The notes: generated from the letters alone by a model not told the origin. 64,000 bases of DNA from Bryobacteraceae bacterium (GCA_035496735.1 DATJEI010000135.1:4735-68734), one strand, 5' to 3'; positions 10,408 through 62,180 are shown, counted from the stretch's first letter. Program-made: numbers and translations.

Positions 10408-10470
10408 CTCCGGTGAAGCCGCCTTGCCTTGCGTCCAAACGCGCGCCGGCAATGGAGTAGCATAGAAACC

Positions 10471-11493
10471 ATGAAGAAATTCATCCTCGTAGCGCTTTTT
10501 ACCGGCTTCGCTGCCCTATCCGCGCCGGCTCGCGATCTCGACATCTATTGGGTGGACGTAGAAGGCGGCGGCGCCACTCTCATCGTCACTCCCGAAGGAC
10601 AGTCGCTGCTGGTCGACACCGGAAATCCGGCTCCCGATGACCGCGATGCGAAGCGAATTTTTCGCGCGGCCCAAAAAGCCGGCCTCAAGAAGATCGACTA
10701 CCTGATGATCACGCATTACCACGGCGATCATATCGGCGGCGCGCCGGCGCTCGCCAAGCTGATCCCCATCGAGCATTTTCTGGATCACGGCGAGTCCATT
10801 GAAGCCCAGGACCCGCGCAGCGGCAAGATCTGGGACGCCTACAAAGCCTTGGGCGATGGGAAACGCACCACCCTGAAGCCCGGCGACAAGCTGCCGCTCA
10901 AGGGACTGGATGCTGTGGTGGTTGCCGCCAACGGCCAAGTCATCGCGTCGCCGGTGAAAGGCGCGAGCGGCGCCGAGAATCCCTACTGCAAGGATGCCCA
11001 GCAAAAGCCGCCCGATACCACCGAGAATCAGCGCAGCGCTGGAATTCTATTGACCTATGGAAAGTTTAAGTTCCTGGACCTGGGCGATTTGACCTGGGAC
11101 GTCGAAATGCAGCTCGCCTGCCCCGTGAACAAACTGGGCACCGTCACATTGTTTCAGGCCACGCACCACGGGTTCTTCAACGATTTCTCCGGCGCTCCGG
11201 CGCACGTGCTCGCGCTCAAACCGCAGATCGTGATTGTCAATAACGGCGCGACCAAAGGTTGGCAGAATTCAGCCTGGGACACGGTCTACAAGATCCCCGG
11301 CCTGGAGGACGTGTGGCAGGTACATCAGGCCATGGGACCCAACCGCGACCACAACGTGAAACCGGATCAGATCGCGAATCTGGAATCAACGCCGCACGAA
11401 GGCCAGTGGTTAATGGCATCGGTCACGCGCGACGGCAAGATCACGATCACCAATGAACGCACTGGATTCAGCAAGACCTATAAGACTCGTTAA
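10471..11493 (+). CDS. secreted MBL-fold metallo-hydrolase
   Basis: Signal peptide MKKFILVALFTGFAALSAPA and the HxHxDH motif ITHYHGDHIGG. Confidence 0.85.
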   Translation: MKKFILVALFTGFAALSAPARDLDIYWVDVEGGGATLIVTPEGQSLLVDTGNPAPDDRDAKRIFRAAQKAGLKKIDYLMITHYHGDHIGGAPALAKLIPIEHFLDHGESIEAQDPRSGKIWDAYKALGDGKRTTLKPGDKLPLKGLDAVVVAANGQVIASPVKGASGAENPYCKDAQQKPPDTTENQRSAGILLTYGKFKFLDLGDLTWDVEMQLACPVNKLGTVTLFQATHHGFFNDFSGAPAHVLALKPQIVIVNNGATKGWQNSAWDTVYKIPGLEDVWQVHQAMGPNRDHNVKPDQIANLESTPHEGQWLMASVTRDGKITITNERTGFSKTYKTR

Positions 11494-19872: not shown

Positions 19873-21175
19873 TTTTCAGGAACAGCGCCGCCGCAATCAA
19901 ACATAGCGCGCACGTGATGAAGAAAGGCGCATTCCAGCCATAATCTCTCGCCGCATACGTGACCACTGCCGCTGAAATCGCGCCGCCGATGTTGCCCAGA
20001 GTGTTCATCACCGCCGAAACGGAGCCGGCGAAATCGCCCCCGATATCGAGCGTCACCGCCCAGGAAATTCCCACAGTCCATTCGAGACTGAAGAAGGCCG
20101 CGCAGTAAAACGCTACGGATACCTGAGGATCGCGCGCCAACACTGCCGGAATCGTGGCCGCGGCGGAAACCAGAAAACCCGCAATCGCCACCCAGCGGCG
20201 TGCCAGATTCACGTTGCTGGTCCGCTTCAGCACGCGATCTGAACACCATCCGCCCAGCAGATCCCCCAGCGTCCCTGCAAACAACGGCAAACTCGCATAG
20301 ATGCCCATCTTCGCCAGCGTCATGCCGCGCGAATCGTGCAGATAGGTCGGAAACCAATCGTTATAGACATTGAGATTGAAGTTGTAGCAGAAGTACATCA
20401 CCGAAAGAATCCACAGATTGGGGTGGGTGAGAATCTGGCGCCACGGAATATCAGTGGCACGTTTCCGCCCGGACCCGATCAGCTCGCGTTCGGCCGCATT
20501 GACGCTGCGGTGCTCTTCCGGCGTGTCGCGATAGTAGAAATACCAGACCGCGGACCATGCCACGCCCAGCAATCCAAAAAGCAGAAATGCCGCGCGCCAG
20601 CCAAACATGGGGATGAAACCGCTCCAATGCAAGCCGTAAATCGTGAAGCCTGCCAGTACCAGCGGCGTCAGCGCCGCGCCTAAGCGTGATCCGGCGTGCG
20701 TGACGCCCTGTGCGAAACCTCGCTCCGTCGGCCGCATCCAGCGCGAAAGGGAACGCGTGGCGATGGGGAACGCGCCGGCCTCGCCCAGCCCAAAGAATAT
20801 TTGAATCACCAGCATCGAAACCGCGTTCCACGCCAGCGCCGTGATCCCCGTGAAGATGCTCCACCATGTGACCACCGCCGTCAACGCCCGGCGGGCGCCA
20901 AAACGGTCGCCCAACCAGCCGCCGGGCAGTTGAAACAGCGCGTAGGCGATGCGGAAACTAAACGTGATCCACCCCATCATCACCAGCGAGATTCCAAGTT
21001 CGTCGCGAATCGCGGGACGCGCTACGGCCAGAATCTGGCGGTCCATGTAAGTGATCATGTACGCCGCTACCGTCAGGCCCAGAACCGCGTGGCGTACGCG
21101 GGTAGGGCGCTCGCCGGAAGGCCTCCCGCTGTGGGGAGCGCTCTGCATCAGAGGATGGGGAGGAGGTACGGCCAC
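19847..21175 (-). CDS. MFS transporter, anion:cation symporter (hexuronate/galactonate-like) type
   Basis: 12-TM-like protein of 442 aa with MDRQILAVARP and LPGGWLGDRFGARR (the MFS loop 2-3 motif). Confidence 0.9.
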   Translation of the reverse strand: MAVPPPHPLMQSAPHSGRPSGERPTRVRHAVLGLTVAAYMITYMDRQILAVARPAIRDELGISLVMMGWITFSFRIAYALFQLPGGWLGDRFGARRALTAVVTWWSIFTGITALAWNAVSMLVIQIFFGLGEAGAFPIATRSLSRWMRPTERGFAQGVTHAGSRLGAALTPLVLAGFTIYGLHWSGFIPMFGWRAAFLLFGLLGVAWSAVWYFYYRDTPEEHRSVNAAERELIGSGRKRATDIPWRQILTHPNLWILSVMYFCYNFNLNVYNDWFPTYLHDSRGMTLAKMGIYASLPLFAGTLGDLLGGWCSDRVLKRTSNVNLARRWVAIAGFLVSAAATIPAVLARDPQVSVAFYCAAFFSLEWTVGISWAVTLDIGGDFAGSVSAVMNTLGNIGGAISAAVVTYAARDYGWNAPFFITCALCLIAAALFLKIDATKRVA

Positions 21176-21185
21176 AAAGGAGTGA

Positions 21186-24080
21186 TCATACCACTTCCAA
21201 CAAACTGCGGATCAAGACCGCGGGATGCACGCCCGTGGCGCCAGCCAGATCCGCCACTTGATGCCGGCATGAAGTGCCCACCGCCACCAGCGCCTCGCCG
21301 GCCTTCATCGCCCTCACCGCAGGCAGCAACTTGCGGTTCGCGATGGCTACCGACACATCATAGTGATCCTTCGAATAGCCAAACGACCCAGCCATGCCGC
21401 AGCACCCCGCATCCAGATCCACCACACTGCATTCGGGAATGCGCCCCAGCAGCTTCTTGGTCGATTCCAGCAGTCCCATCGACTTTTGATGACAGTGCCC
21501 GTGCAGCAGGATTTTCGACGGCCCTTTGCGGATCGGCAGGTCCAGCGTTCCCGCGAACTCTTCCCACAACAGCACTGCGCCGGCTACCGCACGGGCCTTC
21601 TGCTGCTGTTCACCGCGCAGCAGCGATGCCGCGTCTTCCTTCAGCACCGAAAGGCAGCTCGGTTCACAAAACAGGATCTTGTCCCCGTGCGCCGCAATCG
21701 GGTAAAGCCCTTCCACCAACTGCCCGACCTGTGCGCGAGCCTCACTCAACAGCCCCTTTGAGATCATCGGCCGTCCGCAGCACCCCGGCCTGACTACGTC
21801 GACGCTGCATCCCCCGCGCTCCAGAACTTCCACCGCCGCCACGCCGATCTCCGGATCGTAGTGATTGGTAAAAGTGTCATTGAAGAGCGTAATGCGCCGC
21901 CCGCTCCCCTGCGCGCGTGCCGTCCTCCCCGCGACCCGCCCATTCACCCAGTGCCCGAAGGTCTTGCGACGCCACTCCGGCAACTTACGGCGCGGGTCCA
22001 GCCCTAGCAGCTTCTTGTTAAGCGCCGTGCCCGCTACCCAATTCGAGATCGGCGCGAACGCACTGCCCAGCTTCGCCAGATTCGCCGTGTTTCCCAGCGC
22101 GCGCGCGTGCACCGGCGTCCCATGACGCGAATAATAATCTGCCAGGAACTCGCTCTTATAGCGCGCCATGTCGACGCCCACCGGGCACTCCGCCTTACAG
22201 GCGCGGCATTCGAGACACAAATCGAGAGCCCTGTGGACCCCGTCGTCGCCCAGGCCCGCCTCGCCCTCAATTTGACCGCTCATCGCGAGCCGCAGGACAT
22301 TCGCGCGCCCGCGCGTCGAATCCGATTCTTCCCGCGTCGCCATATACGACGGGCACATCGTGCCGGAAAGCTTTTTGCGGCACGCCCCTACGCCGCTGCA
22401 CATTTCAACCGCGCCGCCCAGGCCGCCGTATTCCGAGTAATCGAACCAGGTTTTTGGATTCGGCGTCTTATATCCGCCGCCGAAGCGCAGGTTCGAAGTC
22501 ATCGGCGGCGAATCCACGATCTTGCCCGGATTGAAAATGCCGTGCGGATCGAAAGTACGCTTGACTTCGCGAAACGCTTCGTACAACGTATCGCCGAACA
22601 TCTGCCGCATGAAAGGACCGCGCACCAGGCCGTCGCCATGCTCCCCCGACAGCGCACCGCCGAATTCGAGCACCAGCTTCGCCACGTCATTGGCGATGGC
22701 CTCGAACTGCCGCACGCCCTCTTCGGTCTTCATGTTGATCACCGGACGCACGTGCAGACAGCCTACCGACGCGTGCGCATAAACTCCCGCCGTGGTGTTG
22801 TGCCCGCGCACCAGCTCCATGAATCGTCCGATAAACGGGCTCAGTTTTTCCGGCGCCACCGCCGTGTCCTCGACGAATGAAATCGATTTCGCGTCGTCCT
22901 TCATCGCGGTCGAAAGGCCCAGCGCCGATTCGCGCAGGCTCCAGACGCGAGCTTGCCCAGCAAGGTCAGTCTCGGTGTGATAGTGATAGCCGAGCTTCCG
23001 TCCCCGCAGGTCTTCTTCCAGCGCCTGCATGCGCGGCGGCAGGTCTTCTTTTTGATCGGCGTACATTTCGACGCACAGCGTCGCACCCGGATCGCCCGAA
23101 ACATAGGTATTGCGAATTTTGTCGAGCGTCGCGTTCTGGCGCGTGAAATCCAGGATGTGCTTGTCCATCACCTCCACCGCCGAAGGCTTGTGCTTCAGGA
23201 TCACCGGCGCCGCCGTCAGCGACTCCAGCAATTGCTCGAAGCCGATCACCATAACCGCTTTGGCCTTCGGCAGCGGCACCAGGTTGAGCTTAGCTTCGAG
23301 CACCACGCCCAGCGTGCCTTCCGACCCCACCATGATCTTCGCCAGATTGACCGGCTTATCCTGATCGACAAAATCGTTCAGGTTGTAGCCGCCCACGCGA
23401 CGCACCACCTTGGGATAACGCCGGTCGATTTCATCCGCGTGTTCGCCAGCCAGCCCCAGCACCGCGCGGTAACAGGCCGCTTCGAGCGTATCGCCCACCG
23501 GCACCTCGCTGCGCGGGATCTCGCGAAAATGCACGACACTGCCGTCCGAGAGCAGCACCGTCTGCTCCAGCACATGGTCGATGGTCTTGCCGTAAAGCAC
23601 ACTGCGCGCGCCGCAGGAATTGTTGGCCATCATCCCGCCGATGGTGGCGCGGCTGGCGGTGGAGATATCCGGCGCGAAGCGCAGCCCCAGCGGAGCCATC
23701 TGCGCATTCAGTTCATCCAGCACGATGCCCGGCTCGACCCGCGCCCACCGCTCCTGCGCATTCACTTCCAGCAGACGGTTGTAGTATTTCGACGTGTCGA
23801 CTTGAATCCCTTCGCCGATTGCTTGCCCCGCCTGCGACGTTCCCCCGCCCCGCATCGTAATGGGGCATCGATAGCGCCCGCAAATATCCACCACGCGAAC
23901 GATGTCCGCGCGCGTCTTCGGGATGACAACCCCCAGCGGCCGAATCTTATACACGCTGGCGTCAGTCGAATAGAGCGCGCGCGATACCGGGTCGAAACGT
24001 ACTTCGCCTTCGAGCTGTTTACGGAGTTCACCCTCGAGAGCGCTCGCGTCGATTCGCGGTTCTAACTGCACCAGGCTCAT
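21186..24080 (-). CDS. FAD-linked oxidase fused to an Fe-S/CCG domain (YdiJ/GlcD-GlcF fusion type, D-2-hydroxyacid dehydrogenase-like)
   Basis: N-terminal FAD_binding_4-like segment (MRGGGTSQAGQ), two 4Fe-4S Cys clusters (CSGVGACRKK...CPSY; CLECRACKAECP), and CCG motifs (CCGRP, CCGMAGSFG). 964 aa. Confidence 0.9.
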   Translation of the reverse strand: MSLVQLEPRIDASALEGELRKQLEGEVRFDPVSRALYSTDASVYKIRPLGVVIPKTRADIVRVVDICGRYRCPITMRGGGTSQAGQAIGEGIQVDTSKYYNRLLEVNAQERWARVEPGIVLDELNAQMAPLGLRFAPDISTASRATIGGMMANNSCGARSVLYGKTIDHVLEQTVLLSDGSVVHFREIPRSEVPVGDTLEAACYRAVLGLAGEHADEIDRRYPKVVRRVGGYNLNDFVDQDKPVNLAKIMVGSEGTLGVVLEAKLNLVPLPKAKAVMVIGFEQLLESLTAAPVILKHKPSAVEVMDKHILDFTRQNATLDKIRNTYVSGDPGATLCVEMYADQKEDLPPRMQALEEDLRGRKLGYHYHTETDLAGQARVWSLRESALGLSTAMKDDAKSISFVEDTAVAPEKLSPFIGRFMELVRGHNTTAGVYAHASVGCLHVRPVINMKTEEGVRQFEAIANDVAKLVLEFGGALSGEHGDGLVRGPFMRQMFGDTLYEAFREVKRTFDPHGIFNPGKIVDSPPMTSNLRFGGGYKTPNPKTWFDYSEYGGLGGAVEMCSGVGACRKKLSGTMCPSYMATREESDSTRGRANVLRLAMSGQIEGEAGLGDDGVHRALDLCLECRACKAECPVGVDMARYKSEFLADYYSRHGTPVHARALGNTANLAKLGSAFAPISNWVAGTALNKKLLGLDPRRKLPEWRRKTFGHWVNGRVAGRTARAQGSGRRITLFNDTFTNHYDPEIGVAAVEVLERGGCSVDVVRPGCCGRPMISKGLLSEARAQVGQLVEGLYPIAAHGDKILFCEPSCLSVLKEDAASLLRGEQQQKARAVAGAVLLWEEFAGTLDLPIRKGPSKILLHGHCHQKSMGLLESTKKLLGRIPECSVVDLDAGCCGMAGSFGYSKDHYDVSVAIANRKLLPAVRAMKAGEALVAVGTSCRHQVADLAGATGVHPAVLIRSLLEVV

Positions 24081-25238: not shown

Positions 25239-26606
25239 TCAGACTTCAACCACTTCTTCGAATACTTCCGCCCGCAGACGAATCCCGGCGGCCACCAGTT
25301 TTTCGTAGAACTTGGGCCGGATGCCGGTGGCCGCGAAACGCCCGATCACTCTGCCGTCCGGATCGATACCGCGCTTTTCGAACACAAACAGATCCTGCAG
25401 CGTGATGATGTTGCCTTCCATTCCGGTCACCTCCGTGATCCCCGTCACGCGGCGCGAGCCGTCGCTAAAACGAGCGGCCTGAACCAGCAGGTGCACGGCG
25501 CTGGAAATCTGCTGGCGAATGGCGCTTACCTGCATGTTCGCATTGGCCATCGATACCATTACCTCCAGCCGCGAAATCGCGTCACGCGGGGAGTTCGCGT
25601 GAATCGTCGTCAGGGACCCGTCATGGCCCGTGTTCATGGCCTGCAGCATGTCGAGCGCTTCCTCGCCGCGGACCTCGCCCACCACGATACGGTCCGGGCG
25701 CATGCGGAGGCTGTTGATCAATAATTCCCGCTGCCGCACTGCTCCGCCGCCTTCGAGGTTCGCAGGGCGAGTTTCCAGGCGCACCACGTGCGGCTGCTTC
25801 AACTGCAATTCAGCGGCGTCTTCGATCGTGACAATCCGCTCTTTGGCATTGATGAATACCGAAAGCGCGTTCAATAGCGTAGTCTTGCCGGAACCCGTAC
25901 CCCCGGAAATGATGATGTTCAGTTTCGACTTCACCGCCGCTTCCAGCATTTCGATCATGCCCTGGGTCAGCGCCTTGCGCTCCACCAGATCATTGGGCAT
26001 CAGCTTATCGGTCGAAAACCGGCGAATGGATAGAATGGGTCCGTCCACCGCTAGGGGAGGAATGATCGCATTCACGCGCGAGCCGTCGCTCAAACGCGCG
26101 TCCACCATGGGCGTCGATTCGTCGATGCGACGCCCCACCTGGCTGACGATCTTATCGATAATGCGCAGCAGATGCGGATCGTCGCGGAAAGCCACATTGG
26201 TCAGTTCCAACAAGCCGCGCCGCTCCACGTAAACATACTTGGAGGTATTCACCAGAATGTCGGATATGGTGGGGTCTTTCAACAGCGGCTCCAGCGGCCC
26301 CAGCCCAAAAACTTCATCCAGGACCTCATCGCAGATCTGCTGTTTTTCGGTCGAGCTGAGCAGCGTGGGCTCACCGTCGATCAATCCCAGCAGCGCCTGG
26401 CGTACTTCGCTGCGCATCTTCTGGTTGTCGATGCTGGCCAACGCATCCAGGTTGATCTTGTCCACCAGTTTGCGGTGCAGGGTGAATTTCAGTTCCTGGT
26501 ACTCGGGCGTCGGCGTGGTCTTCGGCCGCCCGGATGCTTTAAGGAGCCGGTGCTCCCAGGAAGCCTGCTGCGCGTTCCTATTGCTCTTATCAAGGGTGGA
26601 AAACAT
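25239..26606 (-). CDS. cpaF: CpaF/TadA family type II/IV secretion ATPase
   Basis: Walker [25 protein letters not shown], and His-box region [14 protein letters not shown]. The N-terminal domain is typical of CpaF. Confidence 0.9.
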
Positions 26607-26615
26607 GGGAATCCG

Positions 26616-27824
26616 TCAATTTTTGCCGCTCTGCTGCGCGCCATCGGGACGAAATCCGCGGACTTTGCACCGAGTTGCTACAGCGCCGCGGCCCGCTTGG
26701 GAAGTGAAGAGTTTGAAAGCTCTGAAGATCAACTCATCGGCATCCCAAGGCCCCAGCAGGAAATCCCAATTCGGCTCAGGAATCCCGGCTTCGCGGCGCA
26801 ACAGGGTCTCGGCCGAGCCCACAAACAGTATCGGTTTCGGGCTATCCGAGGCCACCTCGCTGTTGGCCCATGAAAAGATTCCCTCGCCCTGGCAAACATT
26901 CACCACTCCGGCGTGAAACGGCAGCAGGGTGTCGTTATCGGGCAGATCCTGGAAGGTGCGGCAGCGCGCCCGCGCATACTGCAGCGCTCGCGTGATGCGC
27001 GCGGCTTCGGCCGCTTCAAAGCCGATCACCGCGAAGCGCTTGTCGCCCAGCAGCTCCCCTACTACCGGCGGCAAATCCGGAGTCTCCCTCCGCCCCCGCA
27101 CAGCTTGCGAAAACAGTTGCCGCATGCCCAGCAATTCCGCGCGCAAACGGCTGACGCATTCCCCGGCGGCGAGCATCGCGCGGGCCTCCCGGTTGCTCCG
27201 GCGCCGCTCGCCCGGATCCGCCAGGTAGTCTTCGATTCCCCGCGCCTTGCGCGCAATCTCGGCGAAACCCAGCATGCCGGCAATGCCAGTCCAGTGGTGT
27301 ACCGTGCGCTGCGCCCGGTCGAGATCCAGCCCTTGCGTCAGGCTTCCCAGCAAGCGGGCGCTCTCTTCCTCGCCTTCCACCAGGAAATTGGACCGCATCT
27401 CCGCCAGCAGGTCGTGGTAATCGCCCGGCTGCAACGCCGGCCGGGCCGCCTGGCGCGCACCCAGGTGCAACTTGACGGTCGCCGGGAGCGTGCGCGTGTC
27501 GACCGGCTTGGTGATATAGCCGCTACAACCCGACGCGTGGGCCCTTTCCTCGTCGCCCGGCATGGTGTAGGCCGTGCAGGCGACTACAATGATGTCGCGC
27601 GTAGCCGGATCCGATTTCAAACGCCGCGTCAGCTCGAAACCGTCGGCGCCCGGCAGTTGCACATCCATCAGGATCAGCCGCGGCCGGAATTCGGCCAGAA
27701 CTTTGGCCACTTCCGGCCCGTCACCCGCGGTGCGGATTTCATAGCCGTCCGGCGCGAGCACCGCCCGCATCAGTTTTAGATTGACCGGGTTGTCGTCGAC
27801 AAGCAGAACCGGATCGCTGCCCAT
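26616..27824 (-). CDS. response regulator receiver - Hpt - degenerate receiver-like fusion protein
   Basis: Canonical REC (LLVDDNP, LILMDVQLPG, ACT, YITKP). Hpt-like segment (VHHWTGIAGMLGF). The C-terminal roughly 160 aa have receiver-like beta/alpha periodicity but no acceptor Asp. It sits 9 nt upstream of cpaF. Confidence 0.8.
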   Translation of the reverse strand: MGSDPVLLVDDNPVNLKLMRAVLAPDGYEIRTAGDGPEVAKVLAEFRPRLILMDVQLPGADGFELTRRLKSDPATRDIIVVACTAYTMPGDEERAHASGCSGYITKPVDTRTLPATVKLHLGARQAARPALQPGDYHDLLAEMRSNFLVEGEEESARLLGSLTQGLDLDRAQRTVHHWTGIAGMLGFAEIARKARGIEDYLADPGERRRSNREARAMLAAGECVSRLRAELLGMRQLFSQAVRGRRETPDLPPVVGELLGDKRFAVIGFEAAEAARITRALQYARARCRTFQDLPDNDTLLPFHAGVVNVCQGEGIFSWANSEVASDSPKPILFVGSAETLLRREAGIPEPNWDFLLGPWDADELIFRAFKLFTSQAGRGAVATRCKVRGFRPDGAQQSGKN

Positions 27825-27949
27825 GCCGGAACATATCGTTTGGGGATGGGAAAGTGTGAAAGAAGAGAGAATCTCAGCCGCTCCCGGAAAATCCCGACGA
27901 GCCTAAAATTAGGCCGCTTTCGCCGATAAGCCACGCAGGGAAGTTTTGC

Positions 27950-29200
27950 ATGCCGACTCAACTTTTTGCTCTGATACTCGAAGACCATCTTGCCGATTTT
28001 GAACTGATTGCGCACGAGCTGGCTCGCTTCGGATTTAGCGCCCGCTGTAAGCGGGTTGAGACTGAGGCCGACTACATCGAGCGGCTCCGGGAAATGCCGG
28101 ATATCGTCCTGGCCAATGATTCGCTGGCGGGCTTGGACAACCTGCGCGCGCTGGAGATTTTGCACCAGTCCGGATTGGTGATCCCCTTTATCGTGCTTAC
28201 CGGCACTTTCGGCGAGGAGCAGGTGGTCGAGTGCATGCAGAAGGGCGCTACCGACTATCTGCTGAAGGATCGCATTTTGCGGCTGGGACCGGCGGTGGAG
28301 CGGGCGCTTGAAGAAGGCGAGCTGCGCCGCCGGAAAATTGCGGCGGAGGAAGCTTTGCGGCGCCACAACCTCCAGCTCGAAGAGCAATATCACCGGGCGC
28401 AGGCCGCCAGCCGCATGAAGAGCATCTTTCTCGCGAATATGTCGCACGAATTGCGCACGCCGCTCACCGCCGTCATTGGTTTCGCGGAGTTGCTGGTCGA
28501 CGGCAAGGTCGGGCCGCTCGCTCCCCAGCAACTGGATTTCACGCGCGACATTCTGGCCAATGGCAAGCATTTGCTCAGCCTGATTAACGATGTGCTGGAT
28601 CTCGCCCGGGTCGAATCCGGCAGCATGGCTTTCCATCCCGAACGGCTGTGTCTGCCGGACCTGATTCGGGAAACCATCGCGGGTTTTAGGCTACAGGCGT
28701 CCGAGCGCAATATAACCCTCACCACCGACGTGCAGATGTCCGCGATCGAAGTCTTCCTCGATCCCCGGAAATTAAAGCAGGTGCTGCTCAATTATGTTTC
28801 CAACGCTCTCAAATTCACTCCTTCCGGCGGCCGCGTCACCGTGCACGCTCGCTTTGAGGAGGGGTCCACCTTTCGCCTCGAAGTAGAAGACACCGGCATG
28901 GGAATCGCGGCCCGCGATATCGGCCGTCTGTTTCAGGATTTTCAGCAACTGGGCGGCGGCCTTTCGGAGGACGTCCAGGGCACCGGCCTGGGGCTGGCTC
29001 TCACCAAGCGGCTGGTTGAGGCGCAGGGCGGCAAAGTCGGGGTGGTCAGCCAGTCCGGCCAGGGCAGCAGATTCTATGCGGACTTGCCGTGTTCCGCCGA
29101 GTGGATGCAGACCGATCTGAGCCGCCTTCACCAAGTTGCCGCCGTCCATCCCGAGGCGGAGTACTCCGAGACCGAACCGCAGGTCGCCGGAGCTTCCTAA
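27950..29200 (+). CDS. soluble histidine kinase with an N-terminal receiver domain (REC-HisKA-HATPase_c)
   Basis: H-box SHELRTPLTAVIGFAELL, N-box NYVSNALKFT, G-boxes EDTGMGIA and GTGLGLALTKRLVE. No TM segment and no sensor-sized domain between REC and HisKA. Confidence 0.9.
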   Translation: MPTQLFALILEDHLADFELIAHELARFGFSARCKRVETEADYIERLREMPDIVLANDSLAGLDNLRALEILHQSGLVIPFIVLTGTFGEEQVVECMQKGATDYLLKDRILRLGPAVERALEEGELRRRKIAAEEALRRHNLQLEEQYHRAQAASRMKSIFLANMSHELRTPLTAVIGFAELLVDGKVGPLAPQQLDFTRDILANGKHLLSLINDVLDLARVESGSMAFHPERLCLPDLIRETIAGFRLQASERNITLTTDVQMSAIEVFLDPRKLKQVLLNYVSNALKFTPSGGRVTVHARFEEGSTFRLEVEDTGMGIAARDIGRLFQDFQQLGGGLSEDVQGTGLGLALTKRLVEAQGGKVGVVSQSGQGSRFYADLPCSAEWMQTDLSRLHQVAAVHPEAEYSETEPQVAGAS

Positions 29201-29310
29201 AACGGCGCGGCCCTCACATTCCCGCGGTGGCTGCCGAAGAGGCAAAGGTAGCTGGCTGGGTTTCTCGTAAAGACGGTTTCCGGTAAGGAACCAGGTCGCG
29301 GCATAGAACG

Positions 29311-29421
29311 GCCGGAGAAAGTCGGTGGAGAAGAACGCCGGAGACGGACGCCGGAGAAGGATGCCGGGGAAGTCGAGAAGGAAGCCGAGAAGAACGTTGG
29401 AGAAGTACACCGAAGAAGGAC
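29311..29421 (+). repeat. tandem array of nine degenerate 12-13 nt purine-rich units (consensus GCCGGAGAAGRAC)
   Basis: Units read directly from the sequence: gccggagaaagtc, ggtggagaagaac, gccggagacggac, gccggagaaggat, gccggggaagtc, gagaaggaa, gccgagaagaac, gttggagaagtac, accgaagaaggac. The array is intergenic and ends 87 nt upstream of the GTG at 29508. Confidence 0.85.
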
Positions 29422-29507
29422 TATAGGCCGCAACAGCGCCGGCCCGCAACGGTCAAGCGCCGAAACACCCGGATGGCTCGACATAGCCCCGATCGCGAGG
29501 AGACGCA

Positions 29508-30731
29508 GTGGAAGAAAGTACCCTTACCGTTCTGCTGATTGAGGACAGCCCGCAATTCGCGCAACTCGTGCAGCACTGGCTCGCCAACATGGCCGGCGGC
29601 GCAGCCTTCGTTTTGAACTGGACCGACTCCCTCGCCGATGGCATGAGCCGACTCGATCGCGGCGGCGTCGACGTCATCCTGCTGGATCTTGGACTCCCCG
29701 ATTGCAGCGGCATGGAGACCTTCCTTCAAGCCCGGGATCGCGCCCTCAGGACGCCCATCGTGATCCTCAGCTCCGCCGATAGCGAGTCGCTGGCGCTGGA
29801 GATGATTCAGGAAGGGGCCGAAGATTATCTGGTCAAAAGCACGTGCGACGCCGAATCGCTCGCTCGGGCCGTGCGCCGCGCCGTGGTCAGGCGTAAATCG
29901 CACGCGGCTGTTATGCCGGTGGCTTCCGCCCTCAACCCCGTGATCAGCGTCGTCGGCGCCAAGGGAGGCAGTGGCACCACCACCATCGCATGCACCTTGG
30001 CGGCTGAACTGCGCCAGCAGACCGGCCAAAAAGTCCTCATCGCGGACTTGGATCCCAGCGGCGGATTAGTGTCGTTTCTCACCGGCGTCGAATGCCAGTA
30101 TTCTATGCGGGACGCCATCAGCAACCTGCAGCGCCTGGACGCCGCCGTCTGGGAATCCCTCGTGGCGCGGAATCCCGATGGGCTGGAGGTGATGTGCTCG
30201 CCCAACCCCGGCCAGGAAGAAATTGACAACGGCCGGTTGCGGGAGGTCCTGGATTTCGCGCGGCCCCTCTATGCCTGGACGGTCATCGACCTGGGGCGCC
30301 TCAACTATAAGTCCGTGAATCTGCTGGGAGCCGACGGCGAAGTTTTTGTGGTGACGGCCGCCACTATCCCGGCCTTATATAACGCCAAGCGCGCAGTGGA
30401 GACCTTGCTGGCCGCCGCCATCGATGCGGACCGCATTCGGCTCATCGTGAATCATATAGGCGGAAAACACGAGGTATCCCGCGAAGACATGCAGAGTATG
30501 TTTGGCGTTCCAGTGTACGCCACGGTACCGAGCGATGAGTCCGAAGTGCATCAGGCGTGTGTTCAAAAACGACTGCCGGGCGTGCAAAGTCACATTCGCA
30601 AAGCCGTCGCTGCCCTGGCGCGGAAAATGACGGGCCTACCCGAACAACGTAAAGCCAGTGCCTTGACCTCGCTGGTCTCCTTCGCCCGATTCCGCAGACC
30701 CTCCGGGGACGCCGCGTCGTCCTCCCTTTGA
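29508..30731 (+). CDS. receiver + ParA/MinD-fold ATPase (TadZ/CpaE-like) with a canonical receiver
   Basis: REC with LLIEDSP, ILLDLGLPDCSG, ILSS and YLVKS. The ParA-like domain has VVGAKGGSGTTTIA, a deviant Walker A that lacks the GK[ST] lysine. Confidence 0.85.
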   Translation: MEESTLTVLLIEDSPQFAQLVQHWLANMAGGAAFVLNWTDSLADGMSRLDRGGVDVILLDLGLPDCSGMETFLQARDRALRTPIVILSSADSESLALEMIQEGAEDYLVKSTCDAESLARAVRRAVVRRKSHAAVMPVASALNPVISVVGAKGGSGTTTIACTLAAELRQQTGQKVLIADLDPSGGLVSFLTGVECQYSMRDAISNLQRLDAAVWESLVARNPDGLEVMCSPNPGQEEIDNGRLREVLDFARPLYAWTVIDLGRLNYKSVNLLGADGEVFVVTAATIPALYNAKRAVETLLAAAIDADRIRLIVNHIGGKHEVSREDMQSMFGVPVYATVPSDESEVHQACVQKRLPGVQSHIRKAVAALARKMTGLPEQRKASALTSLVSFARFRRPSGDAASSSL

Positions 30732-32032
30732 GACACGGCATGGACAACGACACCACCATTCTGCTGATCGACGAAGATTCCGCCGGCATAGAGCCGATTA
30801 GACGGGTTTTAGGCGACCAGGCCAATCGCTTTAAGTTGCGGCGCGTCGCCGACGTGTCCACTGCCCTGGCGCGCATCCGCGGCGGCGGAATTGACCTGGT
30901 GTTGCTGACTCTGCGGGCCAGCGCGAAACCGGTCGAAATCAGCGGCTGCGTGGGAGATCCGTTGGCTCCGTTCCTCGAATTGCAGCAGAACGCGCAAGGC
31001 GCGCCGGTGGTGGTCCTCTGCGATTCCGCCGGCGAAGTTCTCGCCCAAACCGCGGTCAAGCAAGGCGCGGCGGCTTATCTGCTCCGCGAAGCCTTGGCAC
31101 CGGATCTTCTCAATCTGCTGCGCTCCGTTGCCGGCAAAAGCGCGCTTTCCTCCACAATCCCGCGGACGCGCGCGCCCCACGGAAAAGGTGGTGAGATCAT
31201 CGCATTCATGGGTGCTAAGGGCGGAGCAGGTGCAACCACCGTAGCCTTAAATGTGGCTGCCGCCCTGGCCGGCCACCGGCGCGTGATTCTCGTCGAGTTG
31301 CACGCGGAGTTGGGATCCCTGCACCTCTACTTCCAGCCTCATCGCTCCATCCGCGACATCGGCGACCTGCTTGCCGCGGCGGATCGAGCGGAAGAAATTC
31401 CGCTGCACGAATTGGAATCCTGCCTGTGGCCGGTTAAGAATGTGCCGGGGCTCCAGGTGTTGTTTGGCCCGCGAAGTCAGCAGAATTCCGCTCCCCTCAA
31501 TCCCGCGAATGCAGCCGGCATTCTTGCGCGCGCCTCGGAAATCGCGGATTACGTGATCGTCGACCTGCCGGCATCGCTCTCCGAAATCAATCGCGTGGTG
31601 CTTGAAAATTCCGCCTGTCTGGCGCTGGTGGTGGAGCGCGACCCCATCTCCGTCCAGTCCGCAAAATTGATTCTCAACCGTGTGGATTCCTGGAAAGCCG
31701 GTAGACTCAGCATCGGCGCCGTGATTCTGAATCGCGCGGCCCTGGTTTCGCCCGTTCCATTCGCGGAGATCGACGCGGAGCTTCACATCCCCACGCTGGG
31801 CGTGATCCCTCCGGCGCCCGATCTGTGCGCGGCCGCCCAGCATGCCCATTCTCCAATGCTGACGCTCGATGCGGAAAGCCTCGCGTCCGTTGCGCTGCGC
31901 GACTTGGGCCGGAAGATCGAGGAACTGATGCCGTCGCCTCGGCCCGCTGAGCGCACCGAAACCCGGCCTCTTGCGGCGGGACAGGTTCACCAGCGTGCCA
32001 GTCCGAACATGACCCGTGCCGGAACCCGTTAG
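30728..32032 (+). CDS. degenerate receiver + ParA/MinD-fold ATPase (second TadZ/CpaE-like paralog)
   Basis: 4-nt overlap with the upstream gene. The receiver-like N-terminus has Thr at the acceptor position (LVLLTLRAS) and Arg for the conserved Lys (YLLRE). The ParA-like domain has FMGAKGGAGATTVA. Confidence 0.8.
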   Translation: MRHGMDNDTTILLIDEDSAGIEPIRRVLGDQANRFKLRRVADVSTALARIRGGGIDLVLLTLRASAKPVEISGCVGDPLAPFLELQQNAQGAPVVVLCDSAGEVLAQTAVKQGAAAYLLREALAPDLLNLLRSVAGKSALSSTIPRTRAPHGKGGEIIAFMGAKGGAGATTVALNVAAALAGHRRVILVELHAELGSLHLYFQPHRSIRDIGDLLAAADRAEEIPLHELESCLWPVKNVPGLQVLFGPRSQQNSAPLNPANAAGILARASEIADYVIVDLPASLSEINRVVLENSACLALVVERDPISVQSAKLILNRVDSWKAGRLSIGAVILNRAALVSPVPFAEIDAELHIPTLGVIPPAPDLCAAAQHAHSPMLTLDAESLASVALRDLGRKIEELMPSPRPAERTETRPLAAGQVHQRASPNMTRAGTR

Positions 32033-32112
32033 AGCCGCCGGGTCCGGCGGAATAAGATGCCGTTGAACTCAGTTCTCCCCGTCCCGCCCGCCAGCCAGCA
32101 CTGGCGGAAACC

Positions 32113-32433
32113 GTGATCACTCCGCCCACGAAACTCACGCCGGCACTGGTTTCCGAGTACCTGCAGAGCTGCCGCAGAGAGCTGGCTCAACTAAAGGCTG
32201 CCCTCGCGGCGGGCGAATATCAGACCGCGCGCCGCCTGGGCCATCAGATGAAAGGAACCGGCGAGCCCTACGGCTTTCCCAGCCTCACCCAGATCGGCAG
32301 AGCGATTGAATGGGCCGCGTCCAAACGAGTAGTTCCGGAACTCGAGAGCCAGATTCAGAGGCTGGAAGTGTGCTTGAATAGCATCGACGTCGCCTCCAAA
32401 CTGGACTCAGGGCCGCCGGAGCCAGCGGCGTAA
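32113..32433 (+). CDS. stand-alone Hpt phosphotransfer protein
   Basis: 106 aa with the GHQMKGTGEPYGFPSLTQIG motif (HxxKG). Confidence 0.7.
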   Translation: MITPPTKLTPALVSEYLQSCRRELAQLKAALAAGEYQTARRLGHQMKGTGEPYGFPSLTQIGRAIEWAASKRVVPELESQIQRLEVCLNSIDVASKLDSGPPEPAA

Positions 32434-32786
32434 TCCCGCACCAGACCCACGAACGTCCGTGTGTCGATCGGCTTCGTAATATACCCGTCGCATCCGGCGG
32501 CCCGCGCGATCTCCTCGTCCCCGTTGATGGCCGAAGCTGTTAACGCGACAATTGGCACATTCTGCAAGGAGCCGTCCCGCCGCAGATGCCGCGTTAGGGC
32601 CAGCCCGTCCATGCCGGGCATCTGAATATCCATGAGGATCATATCCGGGAGGCTGCTCTCCAGCGCCTGGAGTGCTTGTTCGGCATTTTCGGCGGTCCGC
32701 ACCTCGAATCCGTCCTGCATCAGCAGGAAACGTGTCAACTTCAGATTGGGAACGCTGTCATCCACCAGCAGAATCGATTTATTCAT
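32355..32786 (-). CDS. single-domain CheY-like response regulator
   Basis: MNKSILLVDDS start, MILMDIQMPGMDG, ALTAS, YITKP. It is a close paralog of the receiver of 26616-27824. Its 3' tail overlaps the convergent Hpt gene. Confidence 0.85.
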   Translation of the reverse strand: MNKSILLVDDSVPNLKLTRFLLMQDGFEVRTAENAEQALQALESSLPDMILMDIQMPGMDGLALTRHLRRDGSLQNVPIVALTASAINGDEEIARAAGCDGYITKPIDTRTFVGLVRDYAAGSGGPESSLEATSMLFKHTSSL

Positions 32787-35281: not shown

Positions 35282-36472
35282 CTACCTCAAAAAGTAATCC
35301 GCCTTCCCCATCTCCGCCGGCACCGCCACATCGAAGAACCCGATCATCATCTCGTCCCAGCTCTGCTGCCCGTACCGCACCTCAGCCGAAGGGTCCGGAT
35401 TCCGTGGATTATTCGGCGAATTATCGAACCACGCCATCCACTCCAGCCGCGTCCCCTTCTTCAGCGCTAGCGGAGTCGCCAGCCGGTAAGTCATCTGCCA
35501 GTAAAAATCGTACTTGCTCACCTTCAGCAGCGTCTCCGGCAGCCCGTTGTCGCCGATGCGCGTATATTCGAACGCTTTCCCGCGCAAATGCATGTGCGGA
35601 AAAAATCCCAGCAGCAGCGCATCGTTCGGCAGCGTGCCTCCCACGCGCACGCGGTAATCCCGCTCGCCCGGCGGAATCGTGAACGTGTCGTTGCCCATCT
35701 GCAGCGTCAGCACCGCCTTTTCCGGAGGTGACTTAGCGAACACCAGCCCCACCCGCTCACGGTCCGTCGTGGGCCTGCCGTTCGGCGTGTAGTGAATCTC
35801 AAACACCAGATCGGACCCCGCCTTCACCCGCTTGGCCATCCCCTGCGGCCACACGTCGGGCGAGCTTCCCGGCGCGTACACCGTCAAAATATCGGCCTTG
35901 GTCGGACCTCCCGTCCACGTCGATCCCGGCTCGCGAATGTACACCACCACGTGATGCACCACCGCCCGATTCCCCGGTCGCACTTCCACGCCCTGCACCC
36001 AGCGGTCTTTGGTAAACCCCGTCGGAGCCGCGAAATACTGATACTCTACCGCGCCCTTCGCCGGCACATCGAACGCGCGCGGCATCTCCACCACCTGATC
36101 CGGCGTGCCCAAATTCCAACCCCGCGGCCACTCACGCGCCTGCGGAGCGTCTTTCGCATCGCCCTCCGCGGCGCCCGTCGACGCCCACGCGCCCAACGTA
36201 TCGATCTCCGCCGCCGTTAGCGACCGGTCATTGGCGAACTTCCCGCAGCAGGGATCGCCAAACCACGGCGGCATCTTGCGCGTTCGCGTCGCCTCGCGGA
36301 TCGCCTTCGCCCACGGCCGCGTCTCCCGATAAGTGACCAGCGGCATCGGAGCCATCTCCCCCGCCCGATGGCACTCCTGGCAGCGATTTTGCAGGATGGG
36401 AAGAACGTCGCGATAAAACGTAGGGGATGCGGCCAGCGCTGGCCAAGCGATCAAAACCCACGCCCACCGCAT
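35282..36472 (-). CDS. secreted CxxCH heme-motif + PHM/DBH-like copper monooxygenase-fold protein (paralog 1)
   Basis: Signal peptide MRWAWVLIAWPALAASP. Motifs present are CQECH, HHVVVY, PHMHLRGK (HxH) and SWDEMM. The tracked ORF extends to 36508. Confidence 0.8.
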   Translation of the reverse strand: MRWAWVLIAWPALAASPTFYRDVLPILQNRCQECHRAGEMAPMPLVTYRETRPWAKAIREATRTRKMPPWFGDPCCGKFANDRSLTAAEIDTLGAWASTGAAEGDAKDAPQAREWPRGWNLGTPDQVVEMPRAFDVPAKGAVEYQYFAAPTGFTKDRWVQGVEVRPGNRAVVHHVVVYIREPGSTWTGGPTKADILTVYAPGSSPDVWPQGMAKRVKAGSDLVFEIHYTPNGRPTTDRERVGLVFAKSPPEKAVLTLQMGNDTFTIPPGERDYRVRVGGTLPNDALLLGFFPHMHLRGKAFEYTRIGDNGLPETLLKVSKYDFYWQMTYRLATPLALKKGTRLEWMAWFDNSPNNPRNPDPSAEVRYGQQSWDEMMIGFFDVAVPAEMGKADYFLR

Positions 36473-36499
36473 ATCCCCGAGTATACTGCCGAGTAAAGC

Positions 36500-37315
36500 A
36501 TGAATCACATCCTGATCCTCGGCTGCGGCTTCACCGGTCAGCGCGTGGCCCGCCGCTTTCTCGCCCGCGGCTGCCAGGTCACCGTAACCACGCGCACGCC
36601 CGCCCGCCTCGCGTCACTCACCCAGCTCGGCGCACGCGTTATTACGCTTGACGATCTCGCCGCGCACCTGCACCCTGGCGTTCTCGTCCTCCATTCCATC
36701 CCGCCCTCCGGCCCCGCATATCTCGTCGACGCCCTCGGTACTGCCCCCGCGCGACTGGTTTACCTCTCCACCACCGCCGTCTATGGCAGCGCGACCTACG
36801 TCGACGCAACCACCCCCGTCGATCCGCAATCCGACCGCGCCCGCACCCGTCTCGCAGCCGAACAGCGCGTCGTTGCCGGACCCTGGTCGTCCCTCATCCT
36901 CCGCCCTGCTGCGATCTACGGACCCGGCCGCGGCGTCCAGGAATCCCTTCCGCGCTGCGCCTATTACTCCGGCGACAACTACGTCAGCCGTATCCACGTG
37001 GATGATCTCGCCGCCCACGCCGAAGCCGCATTACTTTCGAATCTCGAAGGCGCCTACCCCGTCGCCGACGAAGACCCCTGCACTACCCGTGAAATCGCCG
37101 AGTTCTGCGCCCGTTTCCTGCACTTGCCCTCCGTGCCTCAACCCGGGCCGGGGACGAAAGCCCGCACTACATCCAACCGCCGCGTCGACGGCTCCGCGAT
37201 CCGCAACGCTCTCGGCATTACGCTGACTTACCCGTCCTACCGCACCGGTATCCCCGCGTCGCTAGTCACCAAGCCCGCTCAACGGACGAATTGGCTCACG
37301 GATGAAAACCGATAG
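36500..37315 (+). CDS. NAD(P)-dependent epimerase/dehydratase-type (extended SDR) oxidoreductase
   Basis: ILILGCGFTGQRVARRF Rossmann motif, 271 aa. Confidence 0.8.
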   Translation: MNHILILGCGFTGQRVARRFLARGCQVTVTTRTPARLASLTQLGARVITLDDLAAHLHPGVLVLHSIPPSGPAYLVDALGTAPARLVYLSTTAVYGSATYVDATTPVDPQSDRARTRLAAEQRVVAGPWSSLILRPAAIYGPGRGVQESLPRCAYYSGDNYVSRIHVDDLAAHAEAALLSNLEGAYPVADEDPCTTREIAEFCARFLHLPSVPQPGPGTKARTTSNRRVDGSAIRNALGITLTYPSYRTGIPASLVTKPAQRTNWLTDENR

Positions 37316-38769: not shown

Positions 38770-40158
38770 CTAGCGAGCCGAGGCATCCGCGGTCTGCACC
38801 TTCGGTTTATGCTGCGCCGCCCACGCGTTGTATTCCTCATCGCTCAGGTAAGTGACGTTCATCCACGCGTGTCCCATTTCATCCACCGTGCGGTCGCCAA
38901 AGCCGACCCATTGATCCGGATCGGGATTATACGGATTCGCATGCGTGTTGTCGTACCACGCCGTGACGTGAATCATCGTGCCCTTCGGGAACACCGGCGC
39001 CGCGTCGTCCGCGTAAATATAGTTGGTCATCCAGTTGAAGTTGAAATTGCCGACATGGCTGACGATCTGCGCCGTTCCGTCCGGCAAAATGGCTTCCACC
39101 GTCATGGCCTTGCCGCGCAGATGCATATGCGGCTGGAAATTCTCCAGTTGCGCGGGGCGCGTCAGGACCGTGTAATTGTCCACTGCGGCAAGCGTATTCG
39201 GGGCGATATCGATATTGCGCCCCGCACGCGTTCGCGATCCGTCAGAAGATTTGAAGCCGCGCAACGCCTGGAATCCCGTCAGATATGTGCGGTGCGTAGG
39301 CTCCTGCCCCTTGGGATAAAGCCAGATTCCCAGCTCCACATTGTCACGAATCTCTTCGCCCACCGCGTGAATGTGCACGTCCCAGGAAATCTGCGAACCT
39401 GGCAACAGCAGTTTGCCGGTGTCCGGGCGATACAGATCGTAGCCCTTGCCGATGGCCCATTCCATCAGGAACGAACGCGCGCCCAAGTCGGCGTCGCCCG
39501 CGCCCGGAGCCAGGCTCGACGGATCGTCCTGCACCAGATACGCCACCGCGTGATGCGTGATCTTGCGACCCGCAGCGGTCCCCGGCCGGATCTCGACGGC
39601 CCGCACCCAGCGCGGCTCGGTCACCGGGATATTCGAACTCGGCCGCCACCACACGTCCTGATGATGCGCCGCCATCGTGTAGGGATCGGACTTGATCACC
39701 AGATCCGGCTGGCCCAGCTCTTTCGCCGCTTTCCATTCATTCGCAGCGGGCCATTCTTTGGGAGGCGGCATATCTTTGGGGTCCCCCATAGGCGCGCCGC
39801 TGTCCACCCACCGCACCACGGTTGCGATCTGTTCATCGGTGAGCGAGATGTCGTTCTTGAATTTCTGAATGCCGACGGTTTTGTCAATGTGCCACGGCGG
39901 CATCTGCCGCGTAATCACACGCTGGCGGATGGCCTTGGCCCACGGGCGGGTTTCTTCGTAGGTCACCAGCGACATGGGCGCGAGCGAGCCTTTGCGATGG
40001 CACTCCTGGCAGCGCTCCTGGAAAATCGGGGCAATGTCTTTGGCGAACGTAACCGCTTTCGCGGTCTCCGCCTGACCTGCGGCAGTGGCCGCATCCGCGC
40101 CCAACAGCGCAGCAGGCAGCACGAAAGCAGCAAACGCAAAAAACTTAGCAGGCGTCAT
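38770..40158 (-). CDS. secreted CxxCH heme-motif + PHM/DBH-like copper monooxygenase-fold protein (paralog 2)
   Basis: Start set at MTPAKFFAFAAFVLPAALLG (ATG 40158). Motifs present are CQECH, THHAVAY, PHMHLRGK and TVDEMG. It aligns along its length with 35282-36472. Confidence 0.8.
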   Translation of the reverse strand: MTPAKFFAFAAFVLPAALLGADAATAAGQAETAKAVTFAKDIAPIFQERCQECHRKGSLAPMSLVTYEETRPWAKAIRQRVITRQMPPWHIDKTVGIQKFKNDISLTDEQIATVVRWVDSGAPMGDPKDMPPPKEWPAANEWKAAKELGQPDLVIKSDPYTMAAHHQDVWWRPSSNIPVTEPRWVRAVEIRPGTAAGRKITHHAVAYLVQDDPSSLAPGAGDADLGARSFLMEWAIGKGYDLYRPDTGKLLLPGSQISWDVHIHAVGEEIRDNVELGIWLYPKGQEPTHRTYLTGFQALRGFKSSDGSRTRAGRNIDIAPNTLAAVDNYTVLTRPAQLENFQPHMHLRGKAMTVEAILPDGTAQIVSHVGNFNFNWMTNYIYADDAAPVFPKGTMIHVTAWYDNTHANPYNPDPDQWVGFGDRTVDEMGHAWMNVTYLSDEEYNAWAAQHKPKVQTADASAR

Positions 40159-40403
40159 AATACGCTCCTTCGACACACGTTTTACAAACCGCCAATCGTC
40201 GATAAGTCTAGCGATGCGAATGGATAATGTCAAAGGGGTAGGCGCCGCGAGCAAAGGACCCGTCCGAAAAACGCGCCACTGGCACGACCGGATAGCTCCC
40301 CGCATGGTCGGCAATCCAATTAACTAGCTACTGGATTGCGACGTGTACTTCCGGACGCTTTCTCATGGAAGGCGCTATCCGCTTTGCAATAGGCTAAACT
40401 TAA

Positions 40404-57597: not shown

Positions 57598-57722
57598 CCT
57601 AGGCCATTATCGCAGAGCAAACCTGTAGCAATCTGGGCGAATAGTACTGGGCGAACCTTTAAATAGTTCAATTGACGGGCCCTTTCGTTTTCACTCACAA
57701 TGGTTTTGATGAGCCCTCTGCT

Positions 57723-60930: not shown

Positions 60931-60936
60931 ACCCAG

Positions 60937-62166: not shown

Positions 62167-62180
62167 CGCGCCGGACTCGC

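Follow-up and report, generated by a model that had tools for sequence, protein, structure and literature searches.

Why would a multi-step phosphorelay and two TadZ-like ATPases be encoded beside a CpaF-type motor where no pilus gene lies around them? The question is raised by seven genes at positions 25239-32786 of a 64,000-nt stretch of DNA from a Bryobacteraceae bacterium (GCA_035496735.1, DATJEI010000135.1:4735-68734), hereafter called the window. A first-pass annotation had taken the relay to be wired to CpaF. Our survey points instead to a conserved core in which a phosphorelay, made up of a kinase with a receiver-like (REC) domain, a REC-Hpt-pseudoreceiver protein, a small histidine phosphotransfer (Hpt) protein and a CheY-like receiver, appears to lead to a TadZ-type ATPase fused to a receiver (REC-TadZ), with the orphan CpaF as a second, apparently separable unit. 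The reading that we tentatively favour, at a little under an even chance, is that a TadZ-type pair under phosphorelay control determines the position of a CpaF-driven machine encoded at another site, or licenses it.

The gene cluster

The cluster is made up of the following features.

25239-26606, minus strand: CpaF/TadA-type hexameric motor ATPase, 455 aa (T2SSE, 204 bits; CpaF structures, 448 bits)
26607-26615, minus strand: spacer of 9 nt from the TGA of the fusion gene to the ATG of CpaF (direct sequence reading)
26616-27824, minus strand: REC-Hpt-pseudoreceiver phosphotransfer protein (the fusion), 402 aa, its pseudoreceiver being putative (REC, 85 bits; Hpt, 33.5 bits)
27825-27949, no strand: intergenic region of 125 nt that separates the divergent fusion and REC-kinase genes; a 152-aa REC protein and a PAS sensor kinase are encoded here in sister clades
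27950-29200, plus strand: soluble histidine kinase, 416 aa, Asp-less receiver-like N-domain, HisKA and HATPase_c (Pfam)
29508-30731, plus strand: TadZ1, 407 aa, complete REC and TadZ/CpaE-type ATPase (REC, 65 bits; CbiA/AAA_31)
30728-32032, plus strand: TadZ2, paralogous ParA/MinD-like ATPase with a degenerate receiver-like N-domain (AAA_31/CbiA; REC, 20.7 bits, sub-threshold)
32113-32433, plus strand: stand-alone Hpt, 106 aa (Hpt, 36 bits)
32355-32786, minus strand: CheY-like single-domain receiver, 143 aa (REC, 95 bits)

All seven open reading frames were confirmed at these coordinates, with coding-type GC at third codon positions (GC3); GC is 0.61-0.63 around the cluster, where the composition of the window is uniform. 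Pfam and NCBIfam bear out each of the seven architectures, neither database yielded a DNA-binding or enzymatic output domain in the cluster, and none of the seven proteins has a transmembrane-like segment. On one side the cluster is flanked by a pyridoxal phosphate (PLP) enzyme (Ala_racemase_N/D-ser_dehydrat in Pfam) and on the other by a PAP2 protein. Pfam searches of all remaining called genes of the window turned up none of the families T2SSF, Flp, Peptidase_A24, secretin, RcpC/CpaB and TadE, and scanning all six frames for the Flp motif xxIEYxL gave no match, either here or in eleven orthologous loci. Much of the first-pass annotation is thereby upheld: the seven frames with their domain layouts, the PLP enzyme and PAP2 phosphatase as flanks, the lack of pilus structural genes in the window, a REC-HisKA-HATPase kinase that is soluble, and the parts list of a His-Asp-His-Asp relay, all parts of which are present with their catalytic residues. 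A scan for promoter and terminator consensus sequences was uninformative, the counts being no higher than the shuffled expectation.

A TadZ-type ATPase with a complete receiver

The annotation had described both ParA-like proteins as TadZ/CpaE-like, and for TadZ1 this holds. Its ATPase domain matches only 36 of 72,556 plasmid records, in which thousands of ParA partition proteins are present, and both matches that were inspected are an 'AAA family ATPase' gene upstream of cpaF-tadB-tadC in a canonical tad locus, immediately so in P. terrae pPT70, whereas tadE and flp genes intervene in S. meliloti pSymA. Among its 140 detectable homologues almost all are proteins of about 405-420 aa with REC and a ParA-type domain, named 'CpaE' by the Joint Genome Institute (JGI); the best PDB match is a 'ParA family' ATPase (3ea0). 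In 98 full-length homologues (34-99% identity) E12, D13, D60, S/T88 and K110 are invariant and the P-loop KGGxG[T/A]T is conserved, and because the receiver residues are invariant, the TadZ1 family would appear to be a true response-regulator family. Neither of the two canonical TadZs checked, from pSymA and pPT70, has a REC domain above threshold. The output domain of TadZ1 thus seems to be TadZ-type, and its receiver, unlike that of an ordinary TadZ, looks functional. Its gene and CpaF are about 3 kb apart on opposite strands, and no tad locus surrounds them.

TadZ2 is 24% identical to TadZ1 and, in alignments with its orthologues and CheY, has T/N in place of the acceptor Asp. The P-loops, KGGSGTTT in TadZ1 and KGGAGATT in TadZ2, both have the form KGGxGxTT, and the Walker-A-like consensus of TadZ is K/RGGxGxS/T, without the lysine of GK[ST] (bioRxiv 10.64898/2026.07.08.737194); both proteins therefore bear a TadZ-type motif. 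For TadZ2 the motif and the Asp-less N-domain fit the assignment, and the plasmid comparison gives no match. A tandem second TadZ-like gene also lies beside the REC-TadZ gene in seven other loci (L087, L089, L090, L093, L094, L103 and L105). Gene callers and orthologues point to ATG 30740 as the likely start of TadZ2 (430 aa), which gives a short gap between the two genes and not the 4-nt overlap noted at first; the TTG start that yields this overlap (30728) is probably not used.

The relay proteins

In the fusion, REC spans residues 6-117 (approximately 27474-27809), Hpt residues 142-230 (approximately 27135-27401) and the putative pseudoreceiver approximately 26691-27041. The N-terminal REC has a complete set of DD/D/T/K acceptor residues when aligned with CheY, and His176 of the Hpt, within HRWxGIAGxLGF, is nearly invariant. 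The C-terminal ~170 residues have no Pfam match. Modelled alone with AlphaFold2 (46 homologues), the C-domain adopts a (beta-alpha)5 fold (predicted local distance difference test, pLDDT, 75.8; predicted TM-score, pTM, 0.70), and the Foldseek matches of the model are almost all receiver domains (TMt 0.6-0.75). Since these matches are combined with Asn309 at the position of the Asp, the model supports the earlier view that the C-domain is a pseudoreceiver. It is strongly conserved, including the stretch DFLLGPWD. An hhalign comparison of the C-domain with the fusion's own N-terminal REC detected no similarity (Neff ~1.9), and a model of the whole protein was poor (pLDDT 61.5). The JGI name of the fusion is 'DivK'.

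The CheY-like receiver, described earlier as a close paralogue of the fusion receiver, is indeed 50% identical to it over 113 aa and likewise has complete DD/D/T/K residues. Of the receiver-like domains in the cluster, those of the fusion N-terminus, the CheY-like protein and TadZ1 therefore have complete acceptor pockets, whereas those of the kinase, TadZ2 and the fusion C-terminus are Asp-less. The motif GHQMKG of the stand-alone Hpt is kept in seven orthologues, and comparable Hpt genes of 108-115 aa are present in L092, L093, L094 and L095. In the window the 3′ ends of the Hpt and CheY-like genes overlap convergently by 79 nt (32355-32433); the orthologous Hpt genes end 8-12 codons earlier, giving a shorter overlap.

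An orphan CpaF downstream of the fusion

The CpaF/TadA assignment of the first-pass annotation is well founded. The protein matches PF00437 (T2SSE) with 204 bits, and its residues 22-442 align with residues 63-489 of the C. crescentus CpaF structure 9e24 with 448 bits (solved structures 9e24/8rjf), the Walker A and B motifs and the Asp and His boxes lining up. Its best NCBIfam match is TIGR03819 (TadA family, conjugal-transfer associated), at 334 bits against a cut-off of 373, and no general CpaF model is among its NCBIfam matches. The end of the gene is a single base away from the PLP-enzyme gene, which is convergent with it. At its other end, as had been annotated, only 9 nt on the same strand separate its ATG from the stop of the fusion, a spacing that suggests co-transcription of the two genes. 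In public precomputed annotation, PF27713 ('UCP018868') is listed on this CpaF and all its orthologues.

A homologue search with CpaF returned at least 120 matches, all of at least 85% identity among the matches listed; as a guide to the next-closest CpaFs it was discarded, all listed matches being such orthologues. In a representative library without genomic context, the best full-length, single-stretch relatives outside the clade are 55-59% identical, and a CpaF from Paraburkholderia is 57% identical. Soil metagenomes from Chinese forests and farmland contain the identical CpaF, and the gene order there is the same.

Relay and CpaF as separable units

The clade to which the window belongs was surveyed by a scan of one genome per species. 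Fusion orthologues of 73-90% identity were found in eleven Bryobacterales metagenome-assembled genomes (MAGs; L007-L017), where synteny covers the cluster and its two flanking genes as far as each contig extends, save for gaps at the PLP gene in L007 (undetected), the Hpt in L009, and the fusion and PAP2 in L017. In these loci CpaF is 87-97% identical, as conserved as the best-kept neighbours, while TadZ2 and the Hpt evolve fast (49-78% among orthologues). Fusion and CpaF are adjacent on the same strand in L001-L016 and L104, the fusion region of L017 being unresolved; the adjacency is thus kept in species-level MAGs and in metagenome contigs whose sequence reaches that far. It appears to be confined to this one Bryobacterales clade, that is, to be lineage-specific.

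Outside the clade the relay is found in other company. L088, L092 and L095 have the fusion (52-60%), REC-kinase (71-73%), TadZ1 (58%), small Hpt (45-47%) and CheY-like receiver (73-75%; L088 and L092) in the same arrangement, with no CpaF and no TadZ2, and L094 has this gene set plus TadZ2. In eleven further loci (L087, L089, L090, L091, L093, L102, L103, L105, L107, L110 and L111), REC-TadZ is accompanied by kinases and single receivers, often by the tandem second TadZ-like gene, and in several cases also by hybrid kinases, REC-Hpt proteins or a small Hpt. The metagenome part of this sample comes from a scan with a REC-TadZ alignment whose patterns lay in the receiver; about 11 of the 80 loci held full-length relatives, and those were analysed. 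T2SSE/CpaF is absent from all 15 of these non-clade loci within flanks of up to 10 kb. Nine of the 15 have Pfam-listed genes, among which no tad-gene family occurs; in the six metagenome loci, tblastn with proteobacterial Tad proteins, sensitive enough to detect the well-conserved CpaF, found none, although a divergent TadB/C could escape it. In L089, a metagenome contig, the module is expanded (10001-13596 and 20225-21224): three REC-ParA-like genes stand together with two hybrid kinases, and a REC-Hpt protein and a CheB-CheR fusion are encoded there as well.

Conversely, CpaF orthologues of 87% identity stand alone in L098, L099 and L100, among unrelated neighbours and on contigs without relay, TadZ or tad genes; nor is there any tad gene beside CpaF in L001-L017. 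With 15 loci that have the relay and no CpaF, and three that have CpaF and no relay, the relay/REC-TadZ module and the orphan CpaF are two separable and individually conserved units, and the earlier claim of a relay wired to CpaF does not hold as a general property. Conservation of the seven-gene neighbourhood in relatives, a check suggested by the annotation, is found within the clade and breaks down outside it, where CpaF is missing.

Upstream of each solitary CpaF, on the opposite strand, lies a gene for a conserved 317-aa protein without a Pfam match (L098, 5680-6633, minus; L099, 691-1644, minus; L100, 952-1905, minus), from which it is separated in L098 by an inserted outer-membrane protein gene. 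Its motifs YHDHCFDG and GGGGH presumably resemble those of DHH/DHHA1 phosphoesterases, and the window holds no homologue of it.

More distant relatives of the fusion (33-39%; L018-L048) have the architecture REC-Hpt-pseudoREC-REC and, in nearly all cases, a kinase gene directly upstream (CHASE3-PAS-HisKA in L023); no TadZ-like gene or CpaF lies near them. In L023 (4305-13847), and with the same layout in L020, the block also contains a B12-binding radical-SAM protein, a PEGA Ser/Thr kinase, a HEAT-repeat protein and a 424-aa unknown.

A truncated input layer

The kinase has clear HisKA (75 bits; H-box SHELRTPL) and HATPase_c (88 bits) domains and a weak REC (35.7 bits), in which the acceptor position is occupied by N. 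Across clade orthologues this position reads N/N/D/E/I/V/N (LAND, LANY, LVDY, LAEH, LAID, LAVD, LANN), and the kinase receiver thus appears to be aspartate-less in most clade members. The REC-kinases of L092, L094 and L095 keep the Asp (LADYSLAG). In L094 and L095, moreover, the fusion is immediately preceded, on its own strand, by a gene for a PAS-PAS-HisKA-HATPase sensor kinase, and a complete 152-aa receiver lies between that kinase and the divergent REC-kinase; L088 also has the 152-aa receiver, and the frame called upstream of its fusion bears PAS domains. Where the sister clades have these two genes, the clade of the window has only 125 nt. This clade has lost the PAS sensor kinase and the 152-aa receiver and, for the most part, the Asp of the kinase receiver, all of which leaves it with a truncated input layer. 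The sensor-less state described by the first-pass annotation is therefore correct but derived, a loss. The annotation had also placed the input in another kinase because the kinase of the cluster begins with a receiver; this argument fails here, as the acceptor Asp is absent and it is the sister clades that have a PAS kinase.

Possible control of a machine encoded elsewhere

In the reading we favour, the soluble kinase would autophosphorylate on its HisKA histidine and pass the phosphate to the N-terminal receiver of the fusion, to its CheY-like paralogue, or to both; from there it would reach an Hpt histidine, the fusion's own or that of the stand-alone Hpt, and end on Asp60 of TadZ1. Phosphorylation may then alter the nucleotide-dependent dimerisation or the localisation of TadZ1, probably paired with the Asp-less TadZ2, and the two would decide where or when a CpaF-driven Tad-type machine assembles or runs. 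The order of phosphotransfer and a TadZ-CpaF contact are what family knowledge would lead one to expect. In the Bryobacterales clade a highly conserved CpaF gene that otherwise stands alone would have been placed behind the fusion, 9 nt away, and genes elsewhere would supply a distant Tad machine with its membrane platform, pilins, peptidase and secretin. In favour of this reading are the domains and catalytic residues, the invariant receiver and TadZ-type P-loop of TadZ1, the plasmid matches in tad loci, a full-length CpaF, the close and retained spacing of fusion and CpaF, and the lack of any DNA-binding or enzymatic output domain in the cluster. In Tad systems tadZ generally lies near tadA, and in Bdellovibrio the tad genes are scattered, with isolated tadA paralogues (bioRxiv 10.64898/2026.07.08.737194); Ca. 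Solibacter usitatus, a relative, has four CpaE and four CpaF copies (PMC3174227). The Bdellovibrio and Solibacter cases fit a machine encoded elsewhere.

Several observations weigh against this reading. No TadB/TadC could be shown for any cluster-carrying genome in the contigs and loci examined. TadZ2 matches none of the 72,556 plasmids, neither TadZ1 nor TadZ2 matches Pfam TadZ_N, and the NCBIfam model CpaE_hom_Actino, the best ATPase-domain match for TadZ1 only, scores 75 bits for TadZ1 and 47 for TadZ2 against a cut-off of 154. Synteny runs about 10 kb further on each side of the cluster (about 20 kb in all), with neighbours 75-97% identical, so that the adjacency of fusion and CpaF could be inherited by chance; we therefore rejected gene-order conservation as a sign of coupling. 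Finally, the solitary CpaF orthologues of L098-L100 and the 15 CpaF-less loci stand on the same side, and the latter imply that the core can do without a neighbouring CpaF and may have nothing to do with Tad.

It could also be, then, that the REC-TadZ proteins are separate ParA/MinD-type response regulators for a non-pilus cargo or process, and that CpaF is a mere rearranged neighbour acting independently. We regard this as rather unlikely. The CpaF-less loci, the solitary CpaFs, a within-clade conservation that background synteny explains, and CpaE-model scores under the cut-off are all what it would predict; however, the 9-nt same-strand spacing points to one transcript, the TadZ-type P-loop is conserved, and the ATPase domain matches TadZ specifically and not the thousands of plasmid ParA proteins.

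Recruitment of the CpaF and TadZ-like pair, under relay control, to an undescribed machine other than Flp/Tad (for secretion, a fibre or cytoplasmic remodelling) is very unlikely. The CpaF clade is isolated, at least 85% identical inside among the matches listed and 55-59% to the best outside representatives, and is always without tad genes in the loci seen; yet the 57% identity of a Paraburkholderia CpaF means that this isolation may reflect only the general conservation of CpaF, the match to canonical CpaF runs end to end with all motifs, and no alternative partner genes are conserved beside it. Quite improbable, too, is a direct switch by analogy with CheY at the flagellar motor, in which the phosphorylated CheY-like protein or the fusion pseudoreceiver would bind CpaF and set extension or retraction, or on or off, with the TadZ-like proteins as a parallel branch: the presumed co-transcription of fusion and CpaF, the strong conservation of the pseudoreceiver and the proposal of phosphorylation as one option for the unsolved switching of the motor (PMC11300603) would suit it, but the fusion family carries its pseudoreceiver in many CpaF-less loci.

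Relation to known systems

Like the canonical Tad/Flp loci (A. actinomycetemcomitans tad, C. crescentus cpa, and S. meliloti pSymA and P. terrae pPT70, our L096/L097), the cluster has a full-length CpaF-type motor and TadZ-type ATPases with the K/RGGxGxS/T motif, an Asp-less receiver-like N-domain (here in TadZ2), and no more than 3 kb between TadZ-like and CpaF genes. It differs from them in having no TadB/TadC, Flp, prepilin peptidase, CpaB/RcpC, secretin or TadE/F/G in 64 kb, in the catalytically complete receiver of TadZ1, where two canonical TadZs have none above threshold, and in two TadZ paralogues that are divergent from CpaF and not directly upstream of it. In P. aeruginosa PprAB and in C. 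crescentus PleC/DivK with PodJ-CpaE, two-component signalling is likewise tied to Tad biogenesis, at the level of transcription or the cell cycle; in our cluster it is the TadZ-type ATPase itself that bears the receiver. PprAB controls the Tad pilus through a DNA-binding regulator. PodJ/CpaE control operates through a polar scaffold (bioRxiv 10.64898/2026.07.08.737194).

Bdellovibrio bacteriovorus, with its isolated tadA3, TadZA fusion and RomR polarity hub, likewise has tadA/cpaF away from structural genes, and its TadZ module ties a degenerate-receiver polarity protein to the motor (bioRxiv 10.64898/2026.07.08.737194). However, no Hpt phosphorelay is described there, and its TadZ lacks a receiver-like domain, where TadZ1 has a functional-looking one. 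With the Spo0F/Spo0B/Spo0A, RcsC/D/B and ChpT-CtrA/CpdR relays the cluster shares a HisKA kinase, single or fused receivers, an HxxKG Hpt and a terminal receiver on the output; it differs in that a TadZ-type ATPase takes the place of a transcription factor as output, its soluble kinase has an Asp-less receiver, and the relay protein has what is probably an extra pseudoreceiver. The Bryobacteraceae/Solibacter REC-Hpt-pseudoREC-REC proteins (L018-L048) resemble the fusion over REC, Hpt and pseudoreceiver and have a kinase as direct partner, but at the C-terminus a further, true receiver is present, the genes that follow encode HEAT-repeat and unknown proteins, and there is no TadZ-like or CpaF gene nearby.

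Orphan copies of tadA/cpaF have been described before, as have multiple CpaE/CpaF paralogues. In full-text searches of the literature we met neither a phosphorylatable REC-TadZ nor a CpaF-linked Hpt relay. The positioning of Tad pili and the switching of CpaF between extension and retraction are unresolved problems, and for the question of how the bidirectional motor switches, phosphorylation is one possibility (PMC11300603). For such control, a TadZ-type ATPase whose receiver is complete and invariant and which has an Hpt relay of its own offers a concrete candidate open to biochemical tests. The more far-reaching proposal, that phosphorylation of REC-TadZ response regulators through a dedicated Hpt relay directly controls where the bidirectional CpaF motor is placed or how active it is, is unlikely; if true, it would add a layer of post-translational switching to Tad-type machines and explain the atypical receiver of ordinary TadZ as a relic of phosphorylation control. 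TadZ1 would in any case suggest an origin for that degenerate receiver. Acidobacteriota response regulators annotated as 'CpaE' usually lie away from pilus genes, so that the CpaE annotation alone is no evidence for Tad pili.

Other genes in the window

A McrBC-type restriction pair (47379-50323, minus strand), consisting of an McrC-like protein (PF10117; 47379-48851) and an AAA_5 McrB-like ATPase (48851-50323), lies in the stretch of lowest GC in the window (0.545-0.577) and may be a small defence island. A surface-polysaccharide cluster (55717-63056) encodes an asparagine synthase, a Wzy_C O-antigen ligase-like protein, a DUF218 protein, a GT2 glycosyltransferase, a Wzt-type ABC ATPase with Wzt_C and an ABC-2 permease. 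A GH44 glycoside hydrolase with PKD domains (11490-13649, minus strand) adjoins a 498-aa protein without a Pfam match (13653-15149). The proteins at 35282-36508 and 38770-40314, both on the minus strand and with no Pfam family on record, are paralogues of about 35% identity that match the same region in L007, L015 and L017, and the former starts with Cys-rich CxxCH-like motifs.

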